The notes: a model not told the origin generated them from the letters alone. A stretch of 60,273 nucleotides of DNA, filler included, from Nitrospinae bacterium RIFCSPLOWO2_12_FULL_45_22 (GCA_001803565.1; 9 parts of 9 records of this genome joined end to end with filler, not necessarily neighbours in it), one strand, 5' to 3'; positions 6,870 to 60,273 are shown, counted from the first letter of the whole stretch. A program made the numbers and translations.

Positions 6870-6891
6870 TAAAAAATCTCCCCTGACTTAT

Positions 6892-15811: not shown

Positions 15812-15911
15812 NNNNNNNNNNNNNNNNNNNNNNNNNNNNNNNNNNNNNNNNNNNNTTAATTAATTAANNNNNNNNNNNNNNNNNNNNNNNNNNNNNNNNN
15901 NNNNNNNNNNN

Positions 15912-36580: not shown

Positions 36581-36680
36581 NNNNNNNNNNNNNNNNNNNN
36601 NNNNNNNNNNNNNNNNNNNNNNNNTTAATTAATTAANNNNNNNNNNNNNNNNNNNNNNNNNNNNNNNNNNNNNNNNNNNN

Positions 36681-38483: not shown

Positions 38484-40544
38484 TTATACTTCCTTAGATG
38501 ATTCAGTTTCTTTTACCTCTTCAATTTTCCAATAGGACAAAGCTTCGTCTAAATCAAATCGTGTTTGTGAATCGGGTTTCCACGAAAGATGTGGTGCCGA
38601 TGATTGACTGTGTGGTGCTTTTTCAGGACGATCTACTTGTACTCGTGCCGGGACATGGAAACTACTACCAAGGACAATTGCTTCACCTGCGCTCAGGATT
38701 GTAATTTGATCCAGCAGACGGCGTGATTGGCTTGGGACAATCCTTCTAAAATGTTCGATATCGTCGGGATTCTGCAACCGGTGCATTATGAAGTTTGCGC
38801 ATTGACTTAACACCGTTGGGCTAATGTCTCCGGGTCTTTGACTGGCGACAATGAGAGAAAGCCCAAATTTACGTCCCTCTTTAGCAATTCGCTCAAATGC
38901 TTCACGGGAAACGCTTAGTCCCCTCGATTCATTTTGACGAACAGGGCAGACATAATTATGCGCCTCTTCAAGTACCGCTACCCAGGGTTCATGAAAACGC
39001 TTCATAGACGGAGCATGTTCACGAAGCTCCAGCAGCAAACGCCCTATAATACCACAAACATAGGGAAGGATTTCATAATCAATCATTGAGCAATCAATAA
39101 CACAAACGTCATTTCCTTCTGTTTCACTGCCTATGCCTAATTTCTCAAGCCAGTCTCGAAAACTCTTTATGCCGAGATTGTCATAATTAAAGAAACAATA
39201 CCAACGCTGGTCTTGAAGGCGGTTTCCGATACGTAACAGTAATCCTCTTAGAAATTGGCGAAAGCTTTGGTCGCCTTCTTCAATACTTGCAGCCTTATAA
39301 AGCTCCGTTGAATTTTGTAAATAATCAAGGCTGAAGTATATCGGTTTATTTGCAGATTGTTGTGTGATCTCCGGTTCGGCTGTAGTAAGATTTGAAAGAC
39401 CATCCCGTAACTGTTGCAGATTAGTTTTCAACTCTGGCTCATCTGCACCATAGGACTTGCTACACTTTTTTTCATCAGCCGCTACTATAGTATTATTAAT
39501 AGTCGCAATTAATTTCTTTATAGCATCGTTCAAGCCGATACCCTTCAAGTATCCATTGAAAGCCGACCATATTTGTTTGATATCTAGTGCCTTGTTAAAG
39601 GAGTTGCTATCAATCACTCCCAAAATATGGTTAATTCTTAAAATTGCCTCCTGAACATTATTTTTTATATTCCCTTTATCAAATTTACCACCCTTAGCAA
39701 CTGACCACAAATTGATAAGCGCTGGTTGCTGTGTTTGTTCCGCAACACTTAACCAAATACAAGCTTCGTGAGTATTCATGAGCCAGACAGGCAAACCCAA
39801 TTCTTTTCCATTAACGTATAAGTAGTTGGGTTTTCGGCCATCGCCTGGCTCTGGTTTCCCAAAAGCGCTGGCATATTCGCCGTTTATATCAAGGATAAAA
39901 ACTTTTGGCCGATTAGTTATACGATCTTTTTGTGATTGCTGTATAAGATGGCTTACCGTGTTGGATTTACCGGAGCCGGTATTGCCTACGATGGCGAGAG
40001 GTCTTGAGAACAAGTCATTGAAAGAACCCTTAACAATCTGGTTGCCAGGCGCAATAGCTATGCCTATTCGGAGGCCGCTATCGAAAGGTTCTCCATCTGG
40101 GTGGTCTTCTGGTTTATTTCTCTTAGGTGCATCGTCGAATAAGGCATCAAGAAGATATTTCTCAACAATCTCCGCTGGTGTATCCAAGGTTGGTAAAATA
40201 CTAATGCCTGGATCGAAACGATAAGATTCAGAACGAAATACAGGTTTTAAAGTTCCAAGTAATTGGATAGTTGCAACACGACGCGGCTTTGTGAGTTCTA
40301 AGGAAAGTTCTTCATTCGAGGGCTCGAAGCTATCGCGCGCATCTAAGTCTGTTACGATGCCAATAGCATATTGGCCAGCGCCTATGCTAAAAGACAGATA
40401 TGCATTTATTGAAATAGCAAGACTCGCACCTTGCAAGTTCGATAGATGGGCACGCACCGGGCTTTTTATTTCGGAAGCAAGTTCTACCTTAACACAAAAA
40501 CCATGTACGCCCACTACATGTCCGACGATCTTATCATTCATCAT
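38484..40544 (-). CDS. herA: HerA/DUF87 ATPase of a SIR2-HerA defence system
   Basis: HAS-barrel-like N-terminus, GNTGSGKS, LDINGEY, LEEAH, EGRKFG, SQRP. Confidence 0.9.
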   Translation of the reverse strand: MMNDKIVGHVVGVHGFCVKVELASEIKSPVRAHLSNLQGASLAISINAYLSFSIGAGQYAIGIVTDLDARDSFEPSNEELSLELTKPRRVATIQLLGTLKPVFRSESYRFDPGISILPTLDTPAEIVEKYLLDALFDDAPKRNKPEDHPDGEPFDSGLRIGIAIAPGNQIVKGSFNDLFSRPLAIVGNTGSGKSNTVSHLIQQSQKDRITNRPKVFILDINGEYASAFGKPEPGDGRKPNYLYVNGKELGLPVWLMNTHEACIWLSVAEQTQQPALINLWSVAKGGKFDKGNIKNNVQEAILRINHILGVIDSNSFNKALDIKQIWSAFNGYLKGIGLNDAIKKLIATINNTIVAADEKKCSKSYGADEPELKTNLQQLRDGLSNLTTAEPEITQQSANKPIYFSLDYLQNSTELYKAASIEEGDQSFRQFLRGLLLRIGNRLQDQRWYCFFNYDNLGIKSFRDWLEKLGIGSETEGNDVCVIDCSMIDYEILPYVCGIIGRLLLELREHAPSMKRFHEPWVAVLEEAHNYVCPVRQNESRGLSVSREAFERIAKEGRKFGLSLIVASQRPGDISPTVLSQCANFIMHRLQNPDDIEHFRRIVPSQSRRLLDQITILSAGEAIVLGSSFHVPARVQVDRPEKAPHSQSSAPHLSWKPDSQTRFDLDEALSYWKIEEVKETESSKEV

Positions 40545-41946
40545 TATCGTCCTTTTCCAAAGTGTTCGTGTTTAAGCTGCGCTTTAGTATTTGTTCCATC
40601 TTTTTTAGCTTAATCCAATCATTTAGCCATGATACATTTGGGAGAACGATCCTGGCAAAATCATCGAAAGTCGCAGGACTGTCGGGTGAGATTTCCTTAG
40701 ATTCTGAATATGGTGAAAGTAAATACACCCGCGCTCCCATTTGTTGATATTCTTTTAGTCTTTTAATCATGTTTTCATTTGGACGAGGGTCTACAACAAG
40801 CATCACAAAACTCGGATTAATAAGAGCGTCTTCAATAATCCTGTTTACGTGTTCGTCACCAAAACCATAACCCACGACAATTAAAAAGGTTTGTGGTTGC
40901 TGAAGAGTTTGATGAAAAGCACGAAAAATGTGGGCATAAGGTAAATCAAGAGTTTGAATATATTTATTTGAAGTTGGTAGAATCCCTACAGGGCCAAGTT
41001 CTTCTCGAAATATACTCTCAAAGTTATTAATGGTTTTGGATTTTTGGTATTCAGCTCGCCATTCTACAAACGGCGATAAGGACAGGTGTGAAGCAAGTAC
41101 ATCCTTGCCGCCATTTCTTTCCCACCAGTGAATCGAACCATGAAGTTTATAAAGCTGGATGAATTTATCATACCTCCGAACCCGACCTTCTGAGACCTCG
41201 CCGGGATAATACATATCGAGGCCATAACAAGAAGGTTCAAAGCGGCGTTCGGCTTGACCTACAAAACCATCTACATAATGAATCCCCAAATGATCCAATG
41301 CCTGCTCTATAAGAGTATCGTAATTCAAAGTGAAGACTTTCGCACGTCCCAAAGAAGGATCGCGTGAAATAAGCTTCGCAACAAATGCATGATGCCCTGT
41401 AGTTTCGTCACGTGGATTTGGCAATTGAAGAGAACACCAAACATAGATTGCACGGCGTAAATCGTTAAGAAGTGTGTTTAATTCCTTGGGATTTAACTGA
41501 ACCCCGTCTTTCCATTTGAAATCAGATATAGGAGATTCCTTCTGGGAGGTAAGAAATGCAGCATTGCTGAGATAGGAAAGCCACGCTTCAAATGAGGAGA
41601 TACCTGTTTCTTTTGGTGACGCCAATCTTTTATCTACAAAAGCATGTAAGTTTGCCTGTTTTTCATCGTTTTTTTTGTAATAGTCTTTAAGAAAAGAAAG
41701 AACCGACTCTTCTAATTTAGCCAACAGAAGCCCTTTATGAGCAACAGAGCAACCAGCCGCCATCAAGACAGAAACATTTTCCATACGAAGCCATTGAGAC
41801 AATAATGCTTGAAGCCTTGTCAATTCGGCATCTTCTGCGTCGACTGCCTCTGTGTTAGCGAGTTCAAGAATGTCGTTTTCATTAGGACCAGATAGTTTAT
41901 AACGTCTCATAATCGTTTGCCCATAAAGGGTTCCTTTTTTATGCAT
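40534..41946 (-). CDS. SIR2-like NADase of a SIR2-HerA defence system
   Basis: AAGCS, FTLNYD, KLHGSIHW, GYGFGDEHVN; overlaps the herA start. Confidence 0.9.
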   Translation of the reverse strand: MHKKGTLYGQTIMRRYKLSGPNENDILELANTEAVDAEDAELTRLQALLSQWLRMENVSVLMAAGCSVAHKGLLLAKLEESVLSFLKDYYKKNDEKQANLHAFVDKRLASPKETGISSFEAWLSYLSNAAFLTSQKESPISDFKWKDGVQLNPKELNTLLNDLRRAIYVWCSLQLPNPRDETTGHHAFVAKLISRDPSLGRAKVFTLNYDTLIEQALDHLGIHYVDGFVGQAERRFEPSCYGLDMYYPGEVSEGRVRRYDKFIQLYKLHGSIHWWERNGGKDVLASHLSLSPFVEWRAEYQKSKTINNFESIFREELGPVGILPTSNKYIQTLDLPYAHIFRAFHQTLQQPQTFLIVVGYGFGDEHVNRIIEDALINPSFVMLVVDPRPNENMIKRLKEYQQMGARVYLLSPYSESKEISPDSPATFDDFARIVLPNVSWLNDWIKLKKMEQILKRSLNTNTLEKDDNDE

Positions 41947-42263: not shown

Positions 42264-42402
42264 AAATTATAGGATTACATATCTTCATACCGCTTCCATG
42301 CTNNNNNNNNNNNNNNNNNNNNNNNNNNNNNNNNNNNNNNNNNNNNTTAATTAATTAANNNNNNNNNNNNNNNNNNNNNNNNNNNNNNNNNNNNNNNNNN
42401 NN

Positions 42403-43878
42403 AGCCATCATAAGCTCGTAACCATACACGCGGGGGAGCAGATGTTTAGGGACATACTCGTTCCAAGCTGCCTGAATTTGCGCCTCTGTTTTGCCCGCCT
42501 TCTTCCACTTTTCGATCATCGTTTTATGGATAACGTCAATAACCTCTACAATGAAAGTGGCTGTGCCGGTAGCAGGGTCAAGGATCAGAACGAACGGTTC
42601 ATCAGGTGCAACGCCATCTGGAATCTTGAGCTCAGGATTCCTCTTGACCATCTCACCCCATGTAACGGTCGAGGCAAGACCGTCTTCAAGCCCAAATTCG
42701 GTTTTCAGCAATTCATCAACGCTTCTTACAATATAGTAGACAACGGGCTGAGGCGTGTAGAAGACCCCTCGTTCAACCTTTTTCTTCTTGTCATACTCTT
42801 TGAGGAAAAGTTCATAGAAGTGGACGACCGGGTCCTCCTGCATTGTTTTCTTGCCGAAATCCCTCATGACTGCTTCAATGTGCGTGTCAGGTCTGTTCAA
42901 CAAATCTACAACTTCCTGTATCCCAAGTTCGTCAAAATCAATTTTACCTTTGCGACCGCCGACTTTTAAGAATGTACCGAGCATCTCTTTGAGGAAGGGG
43001 TTTGTGATAGGAACCATGTCGGCCAGATTATCGGCTATAACACCGGCAGGCCGTGAGACCCGGGCAGCAAGGAGTCCATAGGCAATAGTCTGTGCATACA
43101 TATCTGCAAAGTCGTCTTCATTCAGGTCATGGATAAGCGCTGTTTGAAAGGCCTTGTGCAATTTACGTAACGGACCACGCTCTGATTCTATTTTCAGAAT
43201 GAGATTGGCGCGTTGACGAATACTTTTGGCAAGATCGGCAAGGCGTATTGCCAGCTCTTTGGACGTGGTGATAACTTCCCTAGGGCGCAGTTCAAAGGCG
43301 TCTGACCATTTCTTGCGCCACGCCCCGGCATCATCTTCATCATCAGGCCAGCGCATCTTTTCATCAAGAGTATGAACAACATGGTCAATTTTCAACTTTG
43401 TGTCATCGTCATCCCAGCCGAGAACACGCAATGTCGGGAGGTCGCCGAAAAGCCGATCAGCAGGTTCGCTGAAATGGGCGAAGGTAATCTCACGATGTTC
43501 AGATTCGCCATAGGAGGAAATGAACAGGAGGTCGTGAAAGTTCCACACGGCCTGTTGGGATTTGTTCGCTGAGGCGCGTTTATTGATAACAAGAGAGCGC
43601 AGAATACGCCGCAAAACAACAATGGGTAACTGCTTCGGCTCAAAATTGATGAAAAAGATACCCCAAGGCTGCTTTGAGGAAAGAGGCCTGAGTTGCTTAA
43701 TCTCTTTTATCTTTACAGCGGTTTTCGCGTCTATGCCGAGTTCTTCCGGCTCGTAGTCAAAGGTCAGGTCATCAAAGTCGTCTGATTCAATAGGCCAGTC
43801 AAGTTCGTCACGGAGGTATTTTACAAGCGAAGGGAATGTTCTAATTTCCCTGAGCCTCTGAACCTTTTGTGATATCAC
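42403..43878 (-). CDS. N6-adenine DNA methyltransferase, type ISP/IIG-like (N-terminal part)
   Basis: FADMYAQTIAYGL, HFYELFL, GVFYTP, LDPATGTATF, YGYELM. Confidence 0.85.
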
Positions 43879-43892
43879 ACAACCCTCCCTTC

Positions 43893-46800
43893 TTAAGACA
43901 GTTCCATCCAGGCCTTAAGCGTGGCCTTTACGCCCACAGGTGCCTGAACTTTCTTAAAGTATGAATTTTTAATATGCTTTTCTACAATCGCCCTAATTTC
44001 AGAAAGATTTTTTTCTGGCAATGTCAGATGCCGTGGAGTATCTGGCTTACTCCGGATTAACTGAACGATTTTAGTATCATCTTCAATAATTGAAGCTTTC
44101 TCAATGTCATACAAATACCAGCGGGTAAAGCCCGCTTCATCTGTCCATTGCTCAAGCTCTGGTTTATCCTGATCTTTTGCTGCTTCTGGGCCAGGAAGGG
44201 CGTAACAGAAGAAAACTCCTTTTGCGTTTGCTTTTGGATGCTGTTTGCCGCTAAAAACCTTGCCGGGAAGCATTGAGAGCCGTTCAGTCAGATCAGGATA
44301 ATCTTTTAAAAGCTGCTGATATTCAAGATGCATTTCCTCAATTGGCGTTGTTGTACCTTCATAGGCATGACTAAATTCTTTGAGGGCATCATAATCGTCT
44401 TCAGGGCGTAGAAGCTTTTTCCCTTCAATGCCAAATGTCTTGGAAATGCGCAGAGTCTTATGGGATACCCTTGTGTAAAGACGCAGAAGAATTTCCAATT
44501 CATCCGGAGGCAAAAAGTTCCAGTAGACGATTTTGCCTCTCAATGGGTTTAAGTCAGGATGATCGCTTAAGAGCCTATCTTCAATGCCCGGATTCATACG
44601 GCGGTCAACACGACCTATCCTCTGCATGAGACGAACCGGATTCCAATGTAAATCATAATTGATCAGCCTCATTGCATCCTGCAGGTTAAGACCTTCCGAA
44701 AGAACATCTGTGGAAATAAGAACCCTGATTTCCTCTTTTCCTTGGGCTTTAATTTCTGCACTTGAGGAGTCATTATAATACGGTGAAAACCGCTGAATGA
44801 CTTCACTTCTGTCACGCTTGGAACCACTATCTATCTGCTCAACGCCCTCAATTCCTACATCTTTAATTTGTTTATGTATGTAACGTGCTGTTTCAGCAAA
44901 TTCGCTGAAGATAAGAACTTTTTCTTTTTTAAGAACCGGATCGCTCTTAAGGAGTTTAATAAGAGCTTTCAGTTTATCGTCATGTTGAGGTTTGAACTTT
45001 CTTAATTCTTCGAGAAAATCACATATTTCATCAAGATCGAGATAGGTATCATCCAATATTTCCTCAACCTTATACTCTTCTCTGCTTAAATATTCAATGT
45101 CTTCCAGCATTTCTTCAGTGACGATGTCCTCATCGGCATCTTCAGGTTCCTCGTCACCGAATAACTCTTGTTGATGTTCATGCACATAGTTTATTAGTTC
45201 AGCATTTTGGAGCTTCCAGCGTTCAAGTCTCTTTTTCTCATGTTCGGTTTCACTATGTTTTGTTACCCAAGCAAGTAGTTTAAGCAATAACCGTTCACAT
45301 GAGAGCCCGAAAGAATAGGCTGAACTCTCAAAACGTTTCAGAAATTGTATCCGTATAAGGCTAACAACCTGTTTTTGCCGATTTTCAACAAAGTGGTCTA
45401 TTGATTCATCCGACCCCTTATAGTATGCCAGTGGATAATAGATACCGAGGACAAAAAGGGGTTTATCTTTTGCAAACGCTTTTTCAACTTTATCAAGCAG
45501 ACGGCCATATGTTTTTTTGACTGAATAATCAACAACACGCGGGGCTTCACGGGAGGGGAAGATTGTAGCACTTCCTCCTTGTTGTATTTGGCTCTGTTTT
45601 GCATATGCCCTGCTTCTCTGGACAACCAGATGACGAAATAGAGTATCTGTCATAAGGGCACGCTCGGCTTCAGCCATATTAAGCTCAAGAAGAAGTTGAT
45701 CGCTTGGCGTAATTGTTTTCTTAAGCTCATTTTCCATACGGATAAAATGACCTCTAAGTGAATGTATCCCAAGAGTTGATTTAAAATAATCTTCACGTTG
45801 GCGAGTAAAAAGCTCAACCATATGGCGGAAGTCATCAAGTCGGTTGTTAATAGGTGTTGCGGTTATCAAATAAAGTTCTTTTGAACCTTTGAGTCCCTCT
45901 ATAATGTCGAAAAGAAGACGATACCGTGATGGTCTTCGTTCACCGATTCCTTTAATACCGGGGTTGCGGAAGTGATGGGCTTCATCAATGATGATTGCGT
46001 CAGCCATTTCCTTGATTCGCTCAAACCGATAAGGGAAATCACCACCTCTGCCAAGGTCTGTATGGTTGAAGATAACGAGATTACTAAAATCACCACCTTT
46101 AACACCACCTATATGACGTAGATAGCGTTTTAGATCTCTTTCCCAAACATCTGCTCGTGTTGATTTTGGAACGAATAAGGCAACCCTTTTCCTGTCATGC
46201 ATTACAAGACGCTCTATGAGCATCAACCCTACAAATGTCTTGCCTAATCCGACACCATCACAAATAAATGCGCCACCATGCTGTCGGGCGATTTTAATTA
46301 ATGCCTGATAGCCCTCTTTTTGATATTGATCCAAAATTGGATACATTTTCGATTCGGTTTGTTCCCATTGTGACGGGGTCATTTCATAGCTGCGGAAATA
46401 TTCCTGCAGCGCCTTTGCATAGACTTCAAAGGGAGAATATTCTCGGGTATGCCGTTCAATAACCTTCAGAATGTCCTCACTTATTGGCTCTGCCTCATTC
46501 CAATGGCGCTCATACCATTCCTGAAGTAACTCTACTTCGCGTCTAATTTGAATATTTAATTCAACATTTTCCGTAAGTCCCGGATAGGTAAAGTTACTCG
46601 AACCCACGAGAGCTGTAGAGCCGATTACTGCATGTTTGGCATGAGTTATATAAGCCTTGGCGTGAAATTTATCTTTTGTATAAATGCGGCATTCAATCTG
46701 GCTTTTTCTGATAGCATCAACGATAGCTGGTACACCTGTGAGAAAATCGTTTTTCTCTTTCTCTCTTTCAATGCTGGCATCGAGAATTTGCCTGGCTGTT

Positions 46801-47051
46801 TCAATTCCTGCGAGGAGTGCTTTCTTAGTTCGCTTTGATACCTCGTCTCCCATGAGAATTCTAATTTTTTCCAATTTCTGCCACTGACCATCAAGGGCTA
46901 AGAGAGCACCGATTTCAAAGTAACCAGTAGCAATATCAAACTTGTGAGCGAGATCTGTCCACTCATGAAGGTAATTTCTCACCTTCCAATCCTGATCGCT
47001 GTTATCAACGATAAAGAGGTCGGAACCTTGTAGTTTTGACTCTTTTTTCAT
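43893..47051 (-). CDS. PLD nuclease-SNF2-like helicase fusion
   Basis: FHAKAY...GSSNFT (HKD-like), DGVGLGKT, IDEAH, TATP, SEGLNLQ, QRIGRVDR. Confidence 0.9.
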   Translation of the reverse strand: MKKESKLQGSDLFIVDNSDQDWKVRNYLHEWTDLAHKFDIATGYFEIGALLALDGQWQKLEKIRILMGDEVSKRTKKALLAGIETARQILDASIEREKEKNDFLTGVPAIVDAIRKSQIECRIYTKDKFHAKAYITHAKHAVIGSTALVGSSNFTYPGLTENVELNIQIRREVELLQEWYERHWNEAEPISEDILKVIERHTREYSPFEVYAKALQEYFRSYEMTPSQWEQTESKMYPILDQYQKEGYQALIKIARQHGGAFICDGVGLGKTFVGLMLIERLVMHDRKRVALFVPKSTRADVWERDLKRYLRHIGGVKGGDFSNLVIFNHTDLGRGGDFPYRFERIKEMADAIIIDEAHHFRNPGIKGIGERRPSRYRLLFDIIEGLKGSKELYLITATPINNRLDDFRHMVELFTRQREDYFKSTLGIHSLRGHFIRMENELKKTITPSDQLLLELNMAEAERALMTDTLFRHLVVQRSRAYAKQSQIQQGGSATIFPSREAPRVVDYSVKKTYGRLLDKVEKAFAKDKPLFVLGIYYPLAYYKGSDESIDHFVENRQKQVVSLIRIQFLKRFESSAYSFGLSCERLLLKLLAWVTKHSETEHEKKRLERWKLQNAELINYVHEHQQELFGDEEPEDADEDIVTEEMLEDIEYLSREEYKVEEILDDTYLDLDEICDFLEELRKFKPQHDDKLKALIKLLKSDPVLKKEKVLIFSEFAETARYIHKQIKDVGIEGVEQIDSGSKRDRSEVIQRFSPYYNDSSSAEIKAQGKEEIRVLISTDVLSEGLNLQDAMRLINYDLHWNPVRLMQRIGRVDRRMNPGIEDRLLSDHPDLNPLRGKIVYWNFLPPDELEILLRLYTRVSHKTLRISKTFGIEGKKLLRPEDDYDALKEFSHAYEGTTTPIEEMHLEYQQLLKDYPDLTERLSMLPGKVFSGKQHPKANAKGVFFCYALPGPEAAKDQDKPELEQWTDEAGFTRWYLYDIEKASIIEDDTKIVQLIRSKPDTPRHLTLPEKNLSEIRAIVEKHIKNSYFKKVQAPVGVKATLKAWMELS

Positions 47052-47509
47052 AAGGCTTTTCTCTCACCTTCAAGTTTATTCTTAAAAGACAGCAAGGATA
47101 TTTCCGTTCATATCGGTAAGCGTTATATCTGGTCTAATGCTTTTCTTACAGTCAGAAATCTTTTGATGTTCTGAACATAAGACATCCTCCTGCTGATAGA
47201 GCAACGTATCCCCCGCTTCCAGCATGATCGCAGCAGCCTTTCAACCCTGTTAGAAAAGAATATTCTAACGGGGTCAATAACCTTTAAACTTGTCCCCCGT
47301 ATCAAGTACGGGGCAGGCTCTGCAAGTATTAAACAGGGATCGGTATCCGTTGCTTCGTTGATTTTAGACATTTTATCTGCACACCTTATTTTTGTCCTTT
47401 TGGTTTTAANNNNNNNNNNNNNNNNNNNNNNNNNNNNNNNNNNNNNNNNNNNNTTAATTAATTAANNNNNNNNNNNNNNNNNNNNNNNNNNNNNNNNNNN
47501 NNNNNNNNN

Positions 47510-47597
47510 CCCTGGATTTATGTAGGACCCCTCTATCACCCTCAATCCTTACCCTCTTTATTATCCTCCTTACCTGCCGATCACTTAATGAAAGTAA
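47510..47597 (-). mobile_element. Fragment of the same IS as 51875-52681
   Basis: Identical to sequence at about 52399-52486. Confidence 0.85.
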
Positions 47598-47740
47598 TAT
47601 AAATGTCTTGATTTCCGGGCTTTTGTGGGAGGGAATACCCCACCGAATACTAGGGTTAGCCGAGAGAGGAACTATATCCATTTACACGACTATATCAATT
47701 TTAGAGGAGATGGAAGAGGTTCTTGTCCGACATAAATTAC
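47598..47740 (+). pseudogene. PIN-family toxin fragment
   Basis: NVLISGLLWEGIPHRIL...ILEEMEEVL. Confidence 0.6.
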
Positions 47741-47960
47741 GGACAAACCCCTCCTTTCCCGTTTTCGCCCCCATTCCTCCCTACTCGTTCAGTCTCCCTT
47801 TGGTTCCCTTCGCCTCTTACACCTATCTTGTGCCATGCTGCAAGCTTGACCACAAGACAAAAAAAGACAAAAAACCCTCTTGACTTTCTCTGCTCGCAGA
47901 TATAATTTACTGCTAAAATCAAACTCCTATCAAAATCAAATATCAAAAGGATATAAGCTA

Positions 47961-48419
47961 ATGGAACCCCAATTCCGTTTCTCTGTATGGCGTCCTGCAC
48001 GGCTTATTCGCACATTAGATTATCCTGTCAATACCTGTGGTGATGAAATTTTTGTGTTTGAACCTAATCGTCTTCAAGAGCAAATTTATATCTGGGATCC
48101 TGGACCTAACGATGTTTTTGCATCCCTTGATAAGGAGCTTGGAGATGAATTTCGACTTTTTCTGCTTGAGAAATTTGATCCCGGCTTGGCCCCTGAGGAG
48201 CGAAGTATCGCTCTGTTAGGGGAAGCTGTCGGCGACTTGAACTCCAAACTGCAAAAAACCATGACAACTCCCTGGGCTGACTCCCAACAAACGGTCCTAC
48301 AAGGTCAGAATGACGAAGTTAATCTTCGCGTCAACGTGCCCTTGGCATTATTGAATCACCTTTTATGGATAGCTAAGGTGTTTGGGCATGTGCCTCGCGC
48401 TTCGGTGACGGTCAGATGA
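47961..48419 (+). CDS. Hypothetical protein, gene 1 of a three-gene operon
   Basis: ATG 47961 with AAGGA RBS; ATGA overlap with the next gene. Confidence 0.75.
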   Translation: MEPQFRFSVWRPARLIRTLDYPVNTCGDEIFVFEPNRLQEQIYIWDPGPNDVFASLDKELGDEFRLFLLEKFDPGLAPEERSIALLGEAVGDLNSKLQKTMTTPWADSQQTVLQGQNDEVNLRVNVPLALLNHLLWIAKVFGHVPRASVTVR

Positions 48420-50506
48420 GAGAGTTTTGTCTCCAGTCCCGACAGGATTCCGTAAAAACACTAGCCAACTTCTTTTTCAAAGCTGGGGAGGATACCTCAT
48501 CCGACCGCATAATGGCTATTCTAGAAGTAGGGGAGGGTATTTGTTTTAAGGAAGGGAGCTGGCTCTCAGTTGGAGAAATTGAATTGTATCCCGGAACTCC
48601 TGTGGCCGGAGATGAGAATCCTTATTCTCTGTTGGAACGCGCCCTGACCCTGGGCTCATACGATTGGAAACTACCTGAATTGGATAATATGCTGGATAGG
48701 GCAATTAAAATCGTGGCCGACAAGGACATAGAGAAAAAGAGGAACAAGCTGACCAAGGTACTGGAGGGTGTGGCTCACGTAGCCCTGAGGTGCGGCTTTA
48801 CACACCCTGTATTTGATGCAGAGTCCTTGTCCAACATGCCCTTCAAAAAACCCACGACTGTGGTGGCTGACACCAGTTCGGTTTTGCACGGGGGGCTAGA
48901 TTTTGTTGTTCGCTTTCTTTATCCAGTGGCAAGAATAAAAATACCTGCTGTGGTCCATATGGAAATACTGAATATAGCTGATCGTTACTTTAACCAACGG
49001 CGTGACAAAAAAACGACTGTAGGTGCATTATTCGATCACATCAACAGCCAAGGGGGCCAAAGAGTTCTCTTGAGGCTTGAATTGCAGACGGATGCAGAAA
49101 TTGAACGTCCAAGATTGGGATCTGATCCCTTGAGAGGCATAGTCCAGCCGGATACAGACCCGGAAGACAGGAGCCTCGGGCTTCAAAACGTACAGAGGAG
49201 TTTCGCGGACAGGTTAATTCTGGAAACGGCGATTCAACATAGAGAAAGAGTGAGTTCCGATCACCCGGTAATGCTTTTGACATGCGATCAGGGGCTTGCG
49301 AGAATGACGTTAGGCGAGGGAATGCAGCCGTTATTTTTTGATAAAAACTATTGCTGTCATCTCTTTGGCACCGTTCTTACCGGAACCTGTTTCTGCCCTT
49401 TCTTGAGCTCTCCGAATTCGGATCGACTTTACTTCATACCTCTCATGGATTTGATCTGGGAACTGGCTGTAACCTATGGTTCTGCCCGCATTGTTAATAA
49501 AGATTGTACTGCAACGTTTGAAGTTCGTGCGATTGGGAAAACGCTTTCCTGGAGTCCTTTTCACGCAAAAGACGATCTTTTATGGGTGAGATGGGATGGC
49601 TTCAACGCTGTTGAAAGATTGGCTGAACTTAAGCGAGAAGAAAGCGGAATCCTTGCGGAGCCCCTACGCCCCAGACCGGAAGAAAAGGCTGGAAAAAAAG
49701 ATAAAGCGAGCCAAGATCAGAAGCCCTTGAAAGGTTCATACAAGTTCAGCTTACCTTCCATGCTTTCGCTAATTCAGGCATTCCTTGAAAAGCAGATGCT
49801 AACAAATGAGGAAGGAATCGCTATCGTTGGCGTTAAGACTCTCGATAGTTATGAGAAATATAGAAATTTTCTCCGATCAGGAGACTTCATAATACCGGCT
49901 AAGAAAGGATTTGAAAAAACCGAGAAACTCGATAAGCTTTGGGAAACTATTCTACTGCGGGATTATCCTAGTTTGGAATTACTCCTAGCCGCTGTGCCTT
50001 CTTTTAGGAACTTCAGGGAAGAGCTTATGAAGAACAAGCTCATAATTCGATCAAAAGTAGCATCTGTAGCAGACTCTCCCTTCTCGACCTATTGCGGATT
50101 AGCTGAAATGGTTTGTATTGGATTGCAGATCCCAGAAGAAGGTCTCCGTGGCACTTTTGTTAGACCGACTTTAGAAGAATTTTCTAAAATTGCGGTGGAT
50201 TGCTATGCGAAAATTGCCCAGGGGGAGGAATATATATTGACGGGCCAGTGGCTAGAGGCATTGGCGAGAGAATATGGCGTTCACCCTGTTCTGGCAAGAA
50301 GTAGGCTTGATGAGGCCTACCAAGCCGGATATCTTCAAAGATATACGGAAGGGTCTACGCCCGAAACCCAATTCGAGAAGCACATAATGACTTATCTTAA
50401 TGTTGAAAAGGGTATCCCAGTTATCGAAAGAATCAATTTATACCATGGCGATTTTATTTTGCCCGATAGAACCAGTGTTAGTATTAGAATAATTCAAGGA
50501 AGATAA
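48416..50506 (+). CDS. Multidomain protein with a central PIN-like nuclease domain
   Basis: VVADTS, VHMEI, FADRLIL, LLTCDQGL give the PIN acidic tetrad pattern. Confidence 0.75.
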   Translation: MREFCLQSRQDSVKTLANFFFKAGEDTSSDRIMAILEVGEGICFKEGSWLSVGEIELYPGTPVAGDENPYSLLERALTLGSYDWKLPELDNMLDRAIKIVADKDIEKKRNKLTKVLEGVAHVALRCGFTHPVFDAESLSNMPFKKPTTVVADTSSVLHGGLDFVVRFLYPVARIKIPAVVHMEILNIADRYFNQRRDKKTTVGALFDHINSQGGQRVLLRLELQTDAEIERPRLGSDPLRGIVQPDTDPEDRSLGLQNVQRSFADRLILETAIQHRERVSSDHPVMLLTCDQGLARMTLGEGMQPLFFDKNYCCHLFGTVLTGTCFCPFLSSPNSDRLYFIPLMDLIWELAVTYGSARIVNKDCTATFEVRAIGKTLSWSPFHAKDDLLWVRWDGFNAVERLAELKREESGILAEPLRPRPEEKAGKKDKASQDQKPLKGSYKFSLPSMLSLIQAFLEKQMLTNEEGIAIVGVKTLDSYEKYRNFLRSGDFIIPAKKGFEKTEKLDKLWETILLRDYPSLELLLAAVPSFRNFREELMKNKLIIRSKVASVADSPFSTYCGLAEMVCIGLQIPEEGLRGTFVRPTLEEFSKIAVDCYAKIAQGEEYILTGQWLEALAREYGVHPVLARSRLDEAYQAGYLQRYTEGSTPETQFEKHIMTYLNVEKGIPVIERINLYHGDFILPDRTSVSIRIIQGR

Positions 50507-51658
50507 ATGAGCCTTAAGGACAGAATACGTAAGAAAGGGGCTGGAGAGTCAGAACATCAGACGGCGCTGTTCAATAAGTTTGGGGTGGTTGAGAATCCCT
50601 TTCCGGCTGCTGGACAGCCATCCGGACACCCACGTTTGGAAAATGATGTCGATGAGAAAGTTGGCTTTGACATTCAGGAATTCGAAACCTCTCACAAGAC
50701 TCAAATTTTAGTGATAGAAGGCTCTCAAGGGGTAGGCAAGACGAACCTCTTAAACTACTACCAGAATGAACTAGAGGACCTATATCAAGATGACAAAACT
50801 TGTTACATAATCCGGTACTATCCAGACCCAGAACCGAGTTTTGACGCAATTATCCGCAAGGTTTTTCAGGAACTGGGGGAGAATCACCTGCGCGGAATGG
50901 CGCGGAAATTGAGTAATCTTAGCCGCGACGAGAAGTCGGGTATAATTGATACTGCAAAGAATCAAGAATTGCGCCTTGTTTTACACAAACTAGCTAAAAG
51001 TGCGGAGAGTGGTGACGCTGATTTGGAGACGACTTCGGAAACAGCCATGGAATGGCTTTTAGGCCTGCGAGTTCTGAATAAGCATAAGGTGCTAGGTGTA
51101 AGATTTCGGCTCGACACAGTAGAATCGAAGACTCAGGTGCTGCGTGATGTGGTTTACGTAAGTGTCAAACTCGGAATCTTACGCGGAGTTTTTCTTTTGT
51201 TAGATGAACTCGAGAAACAGGACTATTCACTTAGTACTACCCCCGTTGTCCGGTACTTGTCAGCTATTCGTGCTTTGATAGATGCCTTGCCAACCCACCT
51301 TTTTCTCATGACGGCCCTAACTCCTGATGCGCGTCTTCGATATTTCAAGATGTTACCAGCCATAGCAGGTAGATTACAAAATGTCTACACCCTTTCCTCC
51401 CTGAAGGATGAAAAAGACGGCCTTTCTCTCTACAGCCTTTATCGCGATAAAGCACGGGAAAGCGCTCAGTTAAGGCTGAAGGTTAGTTCGAAGGGCGTAA
51501 AGCTTAATGACATTATTGACCGGGAGGAAATCGTTAAGCTCTTTAAAGAACTGTTGCAGAAATCGGCCCAGAAAGGTATCCAAGGCGTAACTCAACGTGA
51601 TTTTCTTAATGAGCTTTACTTGCGGACTCAAGATCGGTTCAAAACCATACAGATATAA
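50507..51658 (+). CDS. P-loop AAA+ ATPase
   Basis: FGVVENPF, Walker A GSQGVGKT, Walker B LLLDELE, PAIAGRL (arginine-finger-like). Confidence 0.85.
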   Translation: MSLKDRIRKKGAGESEHQTALFNKFGVVENPFPAAGQPSGHPRLENDVDEKVGFDIQEFETSHKTQILVIEGSQGVGKTNLLNYYQNELEDLYQDDKTCYIIRYYPDPEPSFDAIIRKVFQELGENHLRGMARKLSNLSRDEKSGIIDTAKNQELRLVLHKLAKSAESGDADLETTSETAMEWLLGLRVLNKHKVLGVRFRLDTVESKTQVLRDVVYVSVKLGILRGVFLLLDELEKQDYSLSTTPVVRYLSAIRALIDALPTHLFLMTALTPDARLRYFKMLPAIAGRLQNVYTLSSLKDEKDGLSLYSLYRDKARESAQLRLKVSSKGVKLNDIIDREEIVKLFKELLQKSAQKGIQGVTQRDFLNELYLRTQDRFKTIQI

Positions 51659-51874: not shown

Positions 51875-52681
51875 TTAATCCCCTCTCAATTGACTCATAG
51901 GTCTCCTGTTGTTTAGTTCGTCTTCTATCGTAGGCGTGCCTGTTGATTTGTAGGTGGTGTGTCTGTCAAGATATAGGCTCATAGGTACCCCGTATTCCTT
52001 GATATATTGCTTGAAACTGTCCATAGCAGGTATTGTGCCTTCGTATTCGTAAAATCGGGCAAATACTCTGTTTGTGGCATCATCTATATACGCCATCAGC
52101 ACAAGTTCATCACCTCTTCCCTCCAGCCAGTCATGATGCGAGCCATCCATCTGAACCATCTCTCCTAAGTAATCTCTTCTCTCCCGCCATTGTCTATGTG
52201 CCCTAACTTTGCGAACCTTCTTCCAATCTCCAGATTCTGTAAGCCAGTTCCGTAATGTCTCTCTGCTTATCTTAACCCCCTCTATCTCCAAAAGCTTCTC
52301 TGCTGCCAGCGTTGGCCCAAAACCTTTGTACTTTTCCCGGTAAAGTTTTATCACCTTCGCCTTTACCTTTCTGGGAAATTTCCTGCTTGAAGGCGTGCCC
52401 CTGGATTTATGTAGGACCCCTCTATCACCCTCAATCCTTACCCTCTTTATTATCCTCCTTACCTGCCGATCACTTAATGAAAGTATCTCCACTGCTTCTA
52501 CCTGCTTTAATACACCATCCAGCACCTTCTTAATTACGTGTAACCGCTTTAATTTCCTCTGACTTACCACGATAATGTCCTTTCTCGCCATAATCCCCTC
52601 CCTTGAACTGGAGAGAATTATAACTTTGCCATAGGACATTTCTAAATTGGTTATTTAGGACATTATCATTTTGGTATTACA
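51875..52681 (-). mobile_element. Truncated ISNCY (IS202-like) element; transposase 52591-51875
   Basis: HTH, GFGPTLAAEKL, QMDGSHHDW, IDDAT, LYLDRH; left end TGT with two AATGTCC subrepeats; C-terminus lost. Confidence 0.85.
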
Positions 52682-54078: not shown

Positions 54079-54178
54079 NNNNNNNNNNNNNNNNNNNNNN
54101 NNNNNNNNNNNNNNNNNNNNNNTTAATTAATTAANNNNNNNNNNNNNNNNNNNNNNNNNNNNNNNNNNNNNNNNNNNN

Positions 54179-54482: not shown

Positions 54483-55577
54483 TTGTACCTTTACCGCGAA
54501 TATAACCTAAGCATGAAAATGGTGACCCAACCCAAAACAGATCTCTTGGCTCTCCTTGCGCAGGATTTTTCCTTTAAGGGAGAAACTTCTCATCCTATGC
54601 ATAATACTCACGCCTTTGCCGCTAAGTTTCCACCCCAATTGCCACGGGTGTTTATTGAGTCGTTGACTAAACCTGGAGATATTGTTCTGGATCCTATGTG
54701 CGGCTCAGGTACGACAGTCGTCGAGGCTAGTCATCTGGGTAGAATTGGGATTGGGATTGACATGGATATACTGGCTGTAAAAGTATCGCAGGCAAAGACG
54801 TGTGCCCTGGGGCCTCCTTTGGTTCGGCATACCATCAATCAAGTGGTTGACCATGCGACCTTTAATTATCGCGCTCGCACTTTGGATATTAGGTCTTTTT
54901 TAAAAGAAAACTATGGACCCAAAGTGATATCTTTTTTCCAGTATTGGTTTCGAAAAGAAACAATTGAACAACTTGCCTGTGTGGCAAAGGAAATTAAACG
55001 GCTTACCAATCCAGCCATCAGAAACTTCTGTGAGGTGGTATTTTCCTCTATCATTGTAACCAAAAGTGGCGGCATATCGCTTGCCAGAGACCTAGCCCAC
55101 TCCCGTCCCCATAAGGACGGATCAAAAAAGGTAAAAAACGCTATTGAGTCTTATGCAGAAAAGGCCGAGAAGATACTAGCCGCTATGGATAAAGCTAGAG
55201 GAGTTTCAGGCAGAGCGGTAATGCTACGTGGAGATGCAAGATCACTTCCGCTCGCAAAAAATAGTGTTGATTTGATTGTTACATCACCTCCTTATGCCAA
55301 TGCCATTGACTATATGAGGGCCCATAAGTTCTCTATGTACTGGCTAGGGTTGGATTACGATTACTTGTCAAATCTGCGAAAGCGATATATTGGGGCTGAG
55401 GTGAAGCTGGATTTGCAGGAATTTCCCCATAGGCTAGCTTCAGAGGTCATAAGAAAAGTATCGGGAAAGGATATAAGAAAGGCAGGGATTCTTCTTAGAT
55501 ATTTTCAGGATATGGAAATGGCATCGAAGCCCGCATTAACCAGGAATATGTCATACTTTTATATAAGCCTTTTATAA
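54483..55577 (+). CDS. DNA methyltransferase (SPPY, likely N4-cytosine), probably C-terminally truncated
   Basis: HAFAAKFPPQ, LDPMCGSGTT, VTSPPY; the expected RVLK segment after YFQDM is missing. Confidence 0.8.
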   Translation: MYLYREYNLSMKMVTQPKTDLLALLAQDFSFKGETSHPMHNTHAFAAKFPPQLPRVFIESLTKPGDIVLDPMCGSGTTVVEASHLGRIGIGIDMDILAVKVSQAKTCALGPPLVRHTINQVVDHATFNYRARTLDIRSFLKENYGPKVISFFQYWFRKETIEQLACVAKEIKRLTNPAIRNFCEVVFSSIIVTKSGGISLARDLAHSRPHKDGSKKVKNAIESYAEKAEKILAAMDKARGVSGRAVMLRGDARSLPLAKNSVDLIVTSPPYANAIDYMRAHKFSMYWLGLDYDYLSNLRKRYIGAEVKLDLQEFPHRLASEVIRKVSGKDIRKAGILLRYFQDMEMASKPALTRNMSYFYISLL

Positions 55578-56145: not shown

Positions 56146-57267
56146 TCACTTGTCAGACTCTGCCGCCTTTCGCAAGACAAGAAATGCTTCTTTCAGAGGT
56201 TGACTTACGGAACTGTCAGGCTCAGCCAAAACAAGACTTTGGTAAATGTCTAAGAAACTCGTGCGGTATCGGTGAAAGAAGTGAAGGAAATGTCTGACAA
56301 AGCCGATGCAGTCCAGAACAGCAATCTCGATGCCTGACTTGTTGTAGACACTCTTAGCGTACTCATTCACTTCGTACTCGATGACATCGGTTGTGATGAA
56401 GATATAGTTGTCAACTCGATACTTAAGGGTGGAAATCTTCTTAAGGGCATTCTCGATGTCAACGATTGTTACCCTTTTGTCCTTCATCTCATAGCAGGTG
56501 ACTATCTGATCGTCGTTGATTAGGGTAACTTCGACATCTCCGATTGATCCGGTCTGGCTATCTGCGGCGGTGTGCGATTGGAGTGGCAAAGCAGTCTCGC
56601 CAATGCGGTCTTTGACGGAAAGATAGGCAGCGGCAACCATTAAAACTGGAAGCCTACTTGAATTCTTGCTGCTGAGATTTTGCTGAAGAAGAGTAACGGT
56701 TTGCTCGGAGGACAAGGGAAGCGTGTCTTCAGAGTGCTTGAGTTCTCGGAGAAGCTGCTTCATCCGAGTCTCGTTTTCGCTTTTAATGATGAGTAGGAAG
56801 CGAATGATTTCTTTAAGGGCATCGGAAGGAGCTACCTTGCCACGCTGTACGAGGTCGAGCAACTCAAGGACATTCGTATAGACTTGCCGTGGCCTACCGA
56901 CGAGAACCAAATCAGTCGTGAGCTTGCGGTCGATGTTTCTGAATGCAGGAGTGAGGAAAGCAGTTGTTGGGTTGGTGGGCAACTTGTATTTGATTACGAA
57001 AGGTTCAACGAACTGCTCATCGTAGGCACGCCCGGAGTAGGTGCCTTTGCCACCAATCTCCGTGTAGGGCTTTCTGATGTCTACTTTGGAATCGTCGAGC
57101 TTTCCAAGAAGACAAGCCATCAGAAACCGAATTGGAGCCTTGTTTGTAAGACAACGACAAACAAATTCAATCTTAGCTCGAAGTTCAGCACCATCAATGA
57201 AGCACTTGTCTGGTTTGGGGCGGACATCTTGGTAATATTTTTCCAGTAGCGCTGCAGGATCAGTCAT
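56146..57267 (-). CDS. Type II restriction endonuclease (SacI-like)
   Basis: SGRAYDE, HTAADSQTGSIGDVEV...CYEMK; start MTDPAA overlaps the MTase stop. Confidence 0.75.
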   Translation of the reverse strand: MTDPAALLEKYYQDVRPKPDKCFIDGAELRAKIEFVCRCLTNKAPIRFLMACLLGKLDDSKVDIRKPYTEIGGKGTYSGRAYDEQFVEPFVIKYKLPTNPTTAFLTPAFRNIDRKLTTDLVLVGRPRQVYTNVLELLDLVQRGKVAPSDALKEIIRFLLIIKSENETRMKQLLRELKHSEDTLPLSSEQTVTLLQQNLSSKNSSRLPVLMVAAAYLSVKDRIGETALPLQSHTAADSQTGSIGDVEVTLINDDQIVTCYEMKDKRVTIVDIENALKKISTLKYRVDNYIFITTDVIEYEVNEYAKSVYNKSGIEIAVLDCIGFVRHFLHFFHRYRTSFLDIYQSLVLAEPDSSVSQPLKEAFLVLRKAAESDK

Positions 57268-58180
57268 TGTGCGAAGCATCCCTTTGGGAAAAGAGAGTGT
57301 AAGCTTTTTTGAAATTGTGAATATCGTAGTTAACCCAGAGAACTTCTTGACGCTTCTCTTTGGTGGAATGAATTGTTTTGAGCAAACCGAGATGTTTCTT
57401 CCATTTGGGTACAGGATACAATTCATCCATAAGGTCGCATTGGTAATTCGAGATAGCCACGAGACCTTTGACCGAGTTTAGAGCTTTAGCAAGTTCGCGA
57501 TGTTCGTCGTCGGTCATTTCATAGCCATAAGACTTTGTGTCTCCTCTGGTACCGTGAACGTATGGTGGATCGCAGTAGAAAAGCGTTTCTTTGGAATCGT
57601 AAAGGCGGATTACATCAATAGCGGGACGGTTCTCTATTTGTACCCGGAGGAGTCTTTCTGCGATGAAAGTTAAGTCTTCAATTCCGCCAAGCCAGCGACT
57701 AATCACCCCGCTCATTCCATTTCTGCTCGTGTTCTTGCAGTTTGCCCATCGACCTATGGTTGCGGTCTGTGCCAAACCCGTTCTAACCTGACGAGCACGA
57801 ACATAGAAACGCCTTGCCCGTTCAAAGCTTGATAGGTTGGGATCCAGTTGACAGGCTTTGGCAAATTCCTCTCGTGAAAATGGAGTCAGTCCAATGGCCT
57901 CAATTAGCTTTGCCTTTTCTTCACGTAGCACCTTGAAGAAATTGACAACCTCGCCGTCAAGATCGTTGTAGGTTTCGACAGGGGATGAAGGACGGTTGAC
58001 TAGGATAGCGGCTGAGCCCCCGAAAGGCTCACAATAATGGTAGCACTCGGGCAACAATGGAAGTAGCCAATCTAGATGCGAGAACTTTCCGCCGTACCAG
58101 CCGAAAGCGATAACCTTCCGAGAAGCCTTGAGTTGCGATATTGGTGCGGGAACTCTCCTCGCTCCTTCTCTCACTGCCAT
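57260..58180 (-). CDS. Dam/D12-class DNA methyltransferase
   Basis: WYGGK, EPFGGS, YNDLD, YCDPPY. Confidence 0.9.
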   Translation of the reverse strand: MAVREGARRVPAPISQLKASRKVIAFGWYGGKFSHLDWLLPLLPECYHYCEPFGGSAAILVNRPSSPVETYNDLDGEVVNFFKVLREEKAKLIEAIGLTPFSREEFAKACQLDPNLSSFERARRFYVRARQVRTGLAQTATIGRWANCKNTSRNGMSGVISRWLGGIEDLTFIAERLLRVQIENRPAIDVIRLYDSKETLFYCDPPYVHGTRGDTKSYGYEMTDDEHRELAKALNSVKGLVAISNYQCDLMDELYPVPKWKKHLGLLKTIHSTKEKRQEVLWVNYDIHNFKKAYTLFSQRDASHND

Positions 58181-59777: not shown

Positions 59778-60273
59778 TGCCTTTTGAGCCAACTATTAAA
59801 GGGCTCTATTACCGGGGAATGGTAAGTGATCCGATCTAAATTAGCCGGGATAGGATAATGGCCATAGGTATGTACTGCCTTAATAACGGTATGGATATGC
59901 TCTGGTGGTGTATCAGCCGGTATATTAGCCAGGAAGATAAAGAATCTCCCATCCCTACCCAGGATATTTATATATTCTTTACTACNNNNNNNNNNNNNNN
60001 NNNNNNNNNNNNNNNNNNNNNNNNNNNNNNNNNNNNNNCGATGATAGGCATCTTGCCATAGAATTTACTCCGATTGTCCCAGGCATATTTTTGGATTACC
60101 GACAAATCCCATTCATGCCCTATACCCATACCGATGAATCCGATTGGCGCACCCATGACTTTGGCCGCAGCCTGGAGACACCTAAGGAGCATCTGAGAGT
60201 CCAGCCTATCTATTCTCTCTTCACAATAATCGGCTGAGGCTACTACTATGACCCTAATGCCTGATTCCCGGCA
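59774..60273 (-). CDS. URO-D/MtaA-family protein, 3' part (gapped, apparent frameshift near 60240)
   Basis: GRDGRFFIFLANIPADTPPEHIH matches the C-terminus of 22720-23892. Confidence 0.65.

Follow-up and report, generated by a model that had tools for sequence, protein, structure and literature searches.

A co-conserved cassette of a small protein, a PIN-domain protein and an AAA+ ATPase as a candidate defence system

Introduction

The nucleases of the anti-phage systems PARIS, Septu and Gabija are TOPRIM or HNH enzymes. Their ATPases are of the ABC type according to Payne et al. (bioRxiv 10.1101/2024.01.29.577857), who also report that genes lying within Hma systems are often defence systems; their survey drew on RefSeq v209 and admitted no more than three such genes. 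ATPases of the Orc/Cdc6 clade are described, in the accessible portions of two further sources, as recurring in conflict systems together with winged helix-turn-helix (wHTH) proteins and nucleases, and as proposed DNA sensors in such systems (PMC10853773; 10.64898/2026.10.19.760177). One of them, SspC, acts with the wHTH protein SspB, according to the same part of the first source (PMC10853773). Here we describe a cassette of three genes at positions 47961-51658 in DNA from Nitrospinae bacterium RIFCSPLOWO2_12_FULL_45_22 (GCA_001803565.1); "the window" denotes the whole 60,273-nt stretch that was analysed, and coordinates count from its first letter.

The cassette encodes a small protein of 152 amino acids (aa), a 696-aa protein with a PIN nuclease domain and a 383-aa AAA+ ATPase. 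An earlier note, made from the DNA sequence alone, had taken it for an ATPase-linked PIN effector and a candidate new defence system, and this reading is supported by the computational tests reported below. We infer, with a probability of roughly 55%, that the three genes form one co-functional module for defence against phages or mobile elements.

Results

Gene layout and conservation of the cassette

The three open reading frames (ORFs) lie on the + strand at 47961-48419 (152 aa), 48416-50506 (696 aa) and 50507-51658 (383 aa). Genes 1 and 2 share an ATGA overlap at their junction (gtcagATGAgag), and at the junction of genes 2 and 3 (aaggaagaTAAATGagc) the TAA stop is followed at once by ATG, with a Shine-Dalgarno-like stretch, AAGGAAG, in front. 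Both the ORFs and the coupled junctions are as the earlier note had described them. A longer form of the small gene, starting with TTG at 47880, was unsupported by the N-termini of homologues, and the ATG start giving 152 aa was kept.

Scanning 185,579 species genomes with two peptide patterns confirmed 40 loci, a figure to be read as a lower bound (at least 40). The loci belong to Gammaproteobacteria, Desulfuromonadota, Spirochaetia, Alphaproteobacteria, Planctomycetota, Gemmatimonadota, Cyanobacteria, Burkholderiales and one Thermoplasmata archaeon; taxa represented include Thiomargarita, Geomesophilobacter, Pirellulales, Phycisphaerales, Gemmatimonadales, Paraburkholderia, many Nostocales and a Leptolyngbyaceae. 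The ATPase gene lies directly 3' of the PIN gene in all 40, with order and strand kept. A small gene was found 5' of the PIN gene in 37/40 loci by tblastn and in 38/40 by profile search, and the two misses are accounted for, the PIN gene being truncated at its 5' end in L010 and the locus being cut by a contig edge in L040, so that all 38 intact loci carry the three-gene unit. Homologues thus keep the gene order, which the earlier note had proposed to test.

No fourth conserved gene was found beyond a single lineage when 598 flanking ORFs were clustered; the next-largest clusters covered 17 loci, all cyanobacterial. Because the three genes are co-conserved and no further family accompanies them across lineages, the cassette is a three-gene unit and not a fragment of a larger operon, a possibility that the earlier note had raised against itself; Hma genes adjoin it in Spirochaetia.

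Identity among scattered relatives across phyla is 38-65%. Within the cyanobacterial genus of locus L014, the cassette occurs in 15/127 species genomes, as a single intact copy in 14 of these, while the copy in the remaining one (G074) is divided between two contigs and interrupted by a stop. Within the Burkholderiales genus of L019, it occurs in 3/201 sampled genomes. Since presence is patchy within genera, the cassette is accessory and horizontally spread.

The 696-aa PIN protein

Among 8000 candidates scored, 512 database relatives of the 696-aa protein were found at E<=1e-3, the best non-self match having E=1e-295, and because of these relatives the cassette genes are not chance ORFs. All 120 relatives listed bear the source name "hypothetical protein". 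A precomputed PF13638 (PIN_4) annotation is present in 10/120 of them and in 13-14% of members across the closest Protein Atlas clusters; with the 696-aa protein itself, no Pfam family was matched at E<=0.1, and the PF13638 threshold was not reached. A sequence search of solved structures with the PIN-protein profile gave no match at E<=1.

The predicted model (mean predicted local distance difference test score, pLDDT, 83) has five parts. Residues 1-130 (48416..48805, +) form an N-terminal alpha/beta domain, and residues ~145-320 (48848..49375, +) the PIN nuclease domain, followed by a beta-rich domain at residues ~321-397 (49376..49606, +), whose region 312-340 belongs to the surface on which the small protein is predicted to dock. 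A Lys-rich linker at residues 398-437 (49607..49726, +), modelled as disordered with pLDDT <50, differs in length between relatives. It leads to a winged-helix region, residues 445-696 (49748..50503, +), which contains an invariant EGSTPET motif. The earlier note had placed just such a Lys-rich linker before a long C-terminal region.

In the model, the PIN part (residues 146-322) is a three-layer alpha/beta/alpha fold, matching 3i8o with Z 8.8 (134 residues aligned, root-mean-square deviation (rmsd) 4.3) and 5f4h with Z 8.4. Foldseek matched the SMG6/EST1A PIN domain with probability 1.0, as well as Dis3 and HARP. The acidic set D152 (with T153), E183, D265 and T289/D291 is invariant in 28/28 aligned relatives. 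Both the PIN fold and the intact acidic pattern proposed in the earlier note thereby hold on the predicted structure and the alignment, with catalytic motifs that appear complete.

For the C-terminal region, the first winged helix (residues 445-515) is of the MarR type in two structural searches (Z ~10, rmsd 1.6-2.0), and the secondary structure of residues 445-696 suggests three helix-helix-helix-hairpin (winged-helix) units. Foldseek matches include the tandem winged-helix proteins RPC62 and UFL1. FokI, DptG/DndG and the triple wHTH of SspB did not rank among the first 50 matches of either structural search with the whole 696-aa model.

Three longer relatives (P0017, P0024 and P0026; 795-815 aa) form a subgroup with a much longer linker. 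They had been considered as possible fusions, an idea rejected for P0026, which has no small-protein part; its extra length is linker (~135 additional residues) in an otherwise identical architecture. P0026, which lies outside the alignment of 28 relatives, has Asn at the position of D291 and several further changes in the PIN motifs, and is possibly a degenerate nuclease, judging from these substitutions.

Only one solved chain spans the N-terminal domain, the PIN domain and the beta domain together, namely SiRe_0806 of Sulfolobus islandicus (PDB 9jxw/9jxx), crystallised with cyclic tetra-adenylate (cA4) according to the PDB title. Over its residues 151-402 this chain can be superposed on residues 1-398 of the 696-aa protein, with Z 14.3 over 240 residues (rmsd 3.7) after re-ranking of Foldseek matches; a search independent of Foldseek scored Z 13.0 for 229 aligned residues. 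Identity is 12-13%, and there is no match at the sequence level. With regard to a CARF or other cyclic-oligoadenylate-binding domain, the match begins only at chain residue 151; the extra N-terminal 150 residues of SiRe_0806 have no counterpart in the 696-aa protein. The latter, unlike SiRe_0806, carries a linker and winged helices and is accompanied by two separately encoded partners, the small protein and the AAA+ ATPase. Literature searches for SiRe_0806, and likewise for CARF, PIN, cA4 and Sulfolobus islandicus, returned no paper, and the biology of SiRe_0806 is taken here from the PDB titles alone.

The 383-aa ATPase

Gene 3 (50507..51658, +) encodes a protein with an AAA+ base and lid in its model (pLDDT 87.6; predicted template modelling score, pTM, 0.83). 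Walker A (G75-x-G77-K78-T79) and Walker B (D233-E234) are invariant in 21/21 ATPase relatives, as is the N-terminal segment G26...N30-P31-F32-P33, which corresponds to the ENPF motif that the earlier note had singled out along with the Walker motifs. Structural comparison placed the model nearest Orc1/Cdc6 proteins (2qby_B, Z 16.4 over 241 residues, rmsd 3.1; 1w5s, Z 15.9; 1fnn, Z 15.9), with further fold matches to TnsC (Z 14.3), BrxC (Z 12.4), MuB (Z 12.1) and DnaA. The best Foldseek match was the BrxC N-terminus (9zll_B, 2.7e-5), and the RADAR protein RdrA was also present among the matches. On the strength of the model, the protein is a genuine AAA+ ATPase, nearest Orc1/Cdc6, TnsC and BrxC.

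The ranges aligned in the Cdc6/Orc chains end at residues 258-278 of 368-390, so the ATPase is without a C-terminal winged helix, and for that reason we call it Orc1/Cdc6-like in fold and not a member of the family. The TIGR02928 model, which has a cut-off of 181 bits, gave a score of 13.8. In the alignment to Cdc6/Orc chains, the NPFP segment falls on their N-terminal stretch in front of the AAA+ core (ranges in the model start at 24-28), and it may be part of the nucleotide pocket.

At the sequence level, Pfam gave AAA_22 only, at 28.7 bits versus a cut-off of 27, and PHROGs gave one match of unknown function (E=7.5e-4). The search of solved structures with the ATPase profile had an NB-ARC protein as its best match (E=0.019). 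The DUF499, HmaC and BrxC models gave no match, and the 383 aa of the cassette ATPase compare with about 950-1200 aa for BrxC and HmaC proteins. An ABC ATPase had been considered in view of a conserved, signature-like RLDTVESKTQ about 23 residues before Walker B; it was ruled out by the clear AAA+ fold of the model.

The small protein and its predicted complex

Gene 1 (47961..48419, +) encodes a 152-aa protein of no known family, with invariant W10, W45, F72, R81, W105, W136 and P145. It matched nothing in PADLOC-DB 2.0.0, Pfam, NCBIfam or PHROGs, and no antitoxin family. Searching solved structures with its profile gave nothing meaningful (best E 0.46). The Protein Atlas returned no usable feature match, all structural matches having a template modelling score below 0.4 with a model pLDDT of 0.34.

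When the small protein was modelled together with the 696-aa protein, the interface score ipSAE was 0.89 (runs 0.87, 0.89 and 0.89), while the best of three controls reached 0.00. The mark for this score is reached by 58/80 solved complexes and by 2/110 mismatched pairs, a calibration that is rough here, because the alignments were our own. The runs share at least 80% of their contacts, and the pLDDT of the partner is 74-77. Predicted contacts of the small protein lie in residues 42-50 and 98-147, those of the PIN protein in residues 58-83, 129-139 and 312-340. The small protein is thus predicted to bind the N-terminal and beta domains, which flank the PIN domain, and the catalytic residues D152, E183, D265 and D291 are not included in the interface. 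Within the small protein, conservation is higher at the predicted interface than elsewhere (0.516 vs 0.301, permutation p=0.0003).

The earlier note had proposed a small sensor or inhibitor. Binding as a subunit is what the model predicts; because the predicted docking site does not involve the catalytic residues, a subunit with a regulatory or sensor role is more likely than one that simply inhibits the active site.

Defence genes near the relatives of the cassette

Neighbours were scanned as ORFs of at least 140 aa within five ORFs of the cassette. Of 131 proteins selected from 21 loci, 107 from 20 loci were scanned; the 24 left out comprise all those of L035 and some of L003, L006, L007, L011, L016, L020 and L021. 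Strong PADLOC defence matches (<=1e-10) were found near the cassette in 10/16 non-cyanobacterial loci. These are HmaC and PDC-S01 (L003), HmaC and an NsnA-like protein (L004), HmaB and PLD-SNF2 (L006), HmaB (L007), HmaC and PDC-M55A/B/C (L011), a type II methylase with a restriction enzyme (L013), a Ppl-like protein (L019), PDC-S47 / Abi_alpha (L032), DrmMI, PDC-M28C and dGTPase (L036), and DISARM DrmA, DrmB and DrmC (L038), where DrmE was recognised by Pfam only. Proximity of homologues to defence genes, which the earlier note had proposed to check, is accordingly seen at these loci; in the cyanobacterial ones, most neighbours are housekeeping genes.

Hma genes stand beside or around the cassette in 5/5 Spirochaetia loci, in several arrangements. 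In genome G003 the order is HmaC, cassette, ~12 kb of other genes, HmaB and HmaA (L003, together with L041 6198-12325). Locus L011 reads HmaB-HmaA-HmaC-cassette (2-6240), and L004 has the cassette between HmaC and HmaB fragments. In L006 it follows HmaB-HmaA (1166-7269), with HmaC not seen in the available stretch, and in L007 the stop codon of the ATPase gene overlaps the start of HmaB (11260). A Spirochaetia genome with the cassette between HmaC and HmaB/HmaA corresponds to the "embedded" layout through which Payne et al. identified new systems. Outside the Spirochaetia, tblastn detected no Hma genes in the loci.

Many Nostoc-type genomes have a 152-aa VapC-type PIN gene (Pfam PIN, 9.8e-11; in L014 at 6565-7023, -) immediately upstream of the cassette and on the other strand; genes of this cluster occur in 15 cyanobacterial loci.

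The source stretch and the DNA around the cassette

Rather than a single piece of chromosome, the window consists of separate contigs, each of ~5-15 kb, joined in a chain. Eight six-frame-stop linkers of the form N44-TTAATTAATTAA-N44 lie at 5306-5405, 10690-10789, 15812-15911, 31084-31183, 36581-36680, 42303-42402, 47410-47509 and 54079-54178; the remaining N runs (10485-10557, 24550-24557 and 59986-60038) are plain gaps. Because the linkers are contig joins, gene adjacency across them is not real. The cassette's own contig spans 47510-54078 (6.57 kb), with the linker at 47410..47509 as its left border and that at 54079..54178 as its right border.

This contig starts inside an insertion sequence (IS) copy, since 47510..47596 (-) is an exact 87-nt copy of part of an IS transposase gene, in direct repeat with 52399-52485. 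The assembly break at this point was probably caused by a second IS copy sharing the 87-nt repeat. On the other side of the cassette, a truncated IS transposase ORF at 51875..52639 (-) has an HTH_32/HTH_28 N-terminus, with its DDE part cut off, and the right contig end falls within a 2-hydroxyglutaryl-CoA-dehydratase gene. The IS debris that the earlier note saw in the flanks is therefore present. The toxin-antitoxin (TA) debris is weakly supported: the upstream ORF 47611-47883 gave a weak PIN_3 match only, at E=0.023, below the cut-off. This weak PIN_3-like fragment occupies a place equivalent to that of the cyanobacterial VapC-type gene.

A promoter-like element, TTGACT and TATAAT separated by 15 nt, was read by eye at 47880..47906 (+). 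It is weak and absent from the 11 sites of the promoter scan, which did not list it because its spacer is short (15 nt).

Other contigs of the window carry defence genes of their own. A complete-looking SIR2-HerA pair at 38484-41946 (-), with a gene overlap of 11 nt, lies on its own contig (HerA, 686 aa, PADLOC 2e-223; SIR2, 470 aa, PADLOC 4e-150). Within 42403-47051 (-), a gene at 43893-47051 encodes a 1052-aa PLD(HKD)+SNF2 helicase (PADLOC "HKD+Snf2" C3a139, 1.3e-58) and is followed by a type IIG methylase-like ORF that is cut by the contig end at 42403; the two are possibly a restriction-like system of two genes. On the contig right of the cassette's, an N4/N6 DNA methylase at 54483-55577 (+) and a SacI-like restriction enzyme at 56146-57426 (-), which overlaps a D12-class adenine methylase at 57260-58180 (-), look like restriction-modification (R-M) systems. 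Elsewhere, there are a Peptidase_M78 (ImmA/IrrE-like) protein at 35249-36076 (+) and a ResIII helicase fragment at 36681-37616 (-), whose 3' end (C-terminus) is cut at the contig joint. A defence island around the cassette, made up of SIR2-HerA, PLD-SNF2 and the R-M genes after 54179, was dropped as a candidate, contig-join linkers intervening. As these genes are on other contigs, they are not established neighbours of the cassette.

Discussion

A possible mechanism

ORC, TnsC, MuB and BrxC bind DNA. If the cassette ATPase behaves as these structural relatives do, it would assemble on DNA in an ATP-dependent manner and so detect or mark invaders. The 696-aa protein would be the effector, combining a PIN nuclease, a flexible Lys-rich tether and a putative nucleic-acid-binding C-terminal winged-helix region. 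The ATPase may recruit or switch on the PIN complex, with the winged helices giving DNA contact in trans. The 152-aa protein would be a constitutive subunit on the domains flanking the PIN domain, serving as a regulator or trigger sensor and not as a plug of the active site. Cleavage of nucleic acid of the invader or of the host would then stop or abort the infection.

More tentatively, and with clearly less confidence than in a defence role as such, we suggest a new stand-alone immune system, made of three protein families not described before, in which the Orc1/Cdc6-like ATPase, having lost its winged helix, senses invader DNA and licenses the PIN nuclease, whose tethered winged helices act in trans. 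The effector module would be the one that SiRe_0806 has fused to a cA4-binding domain, and the separately encoded small protein would replace that ligand-sensing domain. Such a system would have two inputs, DNA and a second signal.

Weighing the defence reading

Several observations weigh against a role in defence. No cassette was found by tblastn in 72,556 plasmid or 50,697 phage records, and among viral contigs 25 pattern matches yielded none that was confirmed. The defence island that the window seems to contain is an artefact produced by joining contigs. In 6/16 non-cyanobacterial loci (L002, L005, L008, L009, L012 and L034) no credible defence gene was found near the cassette, the only matches in L012 being spurious ones given by RsmB and PASTA proteins. 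Neighbours in cyanobacteria are mostly housekeeping genes (NadA, a metallophosphoesterase, MenC/MenE-like), with only a VapC-type PIN gene or Uma2 close by. Because their genomes are related, the five Spirochaetia loci do not amount to five independent events. On the PIN side, the predicted interface is not more conserved than the rest of the domain (0.48 vs 0.52, p=0.74).

PIN domains are the classic toxins of TA modules. A TA-like or addiction module, with a PIN toxin, a small antitoxin and the ATPase as regulator or chaperone, would stabilise genomic islands rather than confer immunity. The coupling of the small upstream gene to the PIN gene and its predicted binding to the PIN protein would suit such a module, as would the IS remnants in the window and the nearby VapC-type genes in cyanobacteria. 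We nevertheless consider it unlikely, though less so than the explanations that follow: the PIN protein has 696 aa in four domains, whereas VapC has ~130 aa, its small partner matches no antitoxin family and is predicted to leave D152, E183, D265 and D291 free, the strictly conserved AAA+ partner is foreign to type II TA modules, and the plasmid records gave no match.

The neighbours found in Spirochaetia raise the possibility of an accessory to a larger methylation system of the Hma/BREX kind, for example an extra effector or a replacement for HmaC. The consistent Hma context there, the overlap of the ATPase stop with the HmaB start in L007, the HmaB-HmaA-cassette order without visible HmaC in L006 and the BrxC-like fold of the ATPase all fit this idea. 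Against this, tblastn detected no Hma gene in the loci of the other lineages, neighbours are wholly different between lineages, and three Spirochaetia loci possess an HmaC of their own. We give this explanation a low probability, slightly below that of an addiction module.

Equally improbable, in our judgement, is a non-immune nucleic-acid module that serves RNA processing or decay, DNA repair or replication restart in some lineages. PIN_4-type domains do occur in RNA turnover, as in SMG6 and Dis3, which were among the Foldseek matches, Orc/Cdc6/DnaA-type ATPases serve replication, and Nostoc-type genomes keep the cassette at one chromosomal position amid housekeeping genes. The patchy presence within genera (15/127 and 3/201), the scatter over unrelated phyla at 38-65% identity and the defence neighbours of the 10 non-cyanobacterial loci argue the other way.

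Transposon machinery, in which a TnsC/MuB/TniB-like AAA+ regulator would act with a novel nuclease or DNA-binding protein, recalls the fold matches to TnsC and MuB, the Pfam match to AAA_22 and the IS fragments on both sides of the cassette, and it is very improbable given a single intact copy per matching genome (the two matches of G074 are pieces of one gene on two contigs), one chromosomal site across many cyanobacterial species, no transposase or integrase conserved alongside, and flanking IS sequences in the window that belong to an unrelated truncated element.

If the cassette, as we favour, protects against phages or plasmids, it would add a widespread but rare nucleoside triphosphatase (NTPase)-nuclease system with an unusual division of labour, in which the AAA+ ATPase has no DNA-binding domain and the nuclease bears a tethered winged-helix region. 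A function would be assigned to three new protein families, and the effector module of a cA4-binding archaeal protein would be linked to a signal-independent, ATPase-coupled setting. The position next to Hma genes in Spirochaetia would extend "guilt by embedding" to genomes outside the reach of the original survey. Since the cassette is compact (3.7 kb) and has clear catalytic residues, it is easily tested.

Comparison with named systems

The cassette is unnamed in the four family libraries scanned. The PIN protein matched nothing in PADLOC-DB 2.0.0, Pfam, NCBIfam or PHROGs, and none of its 28 aligned relatives matched a PADLOC model at E<=0.01. With neither the small protein nor the PIN protein matching PADLOC-DB 2.0.0, the layout, which the earlier note could not match to a named system, corresponds to none among the PADLOC models released up to 2023. 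ATPase relatives gave weak PADLOC matches at the level of the P-loop, to PifA in 15/21 (best 5.4e-7) and to mad8 in 11/21 (best 1.9e-8). A literature search found no account of the cassette; the supplementary lists of embedded cassettes of Payne et al. were outside that search.

VapBC resembles the cassette in that a PIN-domain gene is coupled to a small gene upstream of it; in the cassette, the product of this small gene is predicted to bind the PIN protein. It differs in the size and domains of the PIN protein, in the obligatory AAA+ partner and in a predicted interface that lies off the catalytic acids.

Hma-embedded candidate 3 (HEC-03), as presented in the accessible text of the preprint (10.1101/2024.01.29.577857), likewise places an ATPase gene and a PIN-domain gene inside Hma. 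According to that text it consists of two genes, for an ABC ATPase and a VapC-like PIN protein, whereas the cassette has three genes, with an AAA+ ATPase and a 696-aa multidomain PIN protein. HEC-03 models matched none of the 28 PIN-protein and 21 ATPase relatives.

BrxC, HmaC, TnsC, MuB and SspC, of the Orc1/Cdc6 clade in conflict systems, share the AAA+ base and lid with the cassette ATPase. The latter differs from them in its 383 aa, in having no C-terminal winged helix and in having no conserved modification genes alongside. The pairing of SspC with SspB, as far as the part of the source available covers it, resembles that of the cassette ATPase with a PIN protein bearing winged helices; neither Pfam nor PADLOC gave an Ssp match for the ATPase.

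The earlier comparison with PARIS, Septu and Gabija stands for the general layout of an NTPase gene with a nuclease gene and not for the class of ATPase, which is AAA+ and not ABC; the match to PtuA of Septu (PADLOC, E 0.0025) is weak and at the level of the P-loop. We therefore count the cassette among the NTPase-plus-nuclease systems, its protein families having no name in the libraries searched, and regard it as a good candidate for an immune system.

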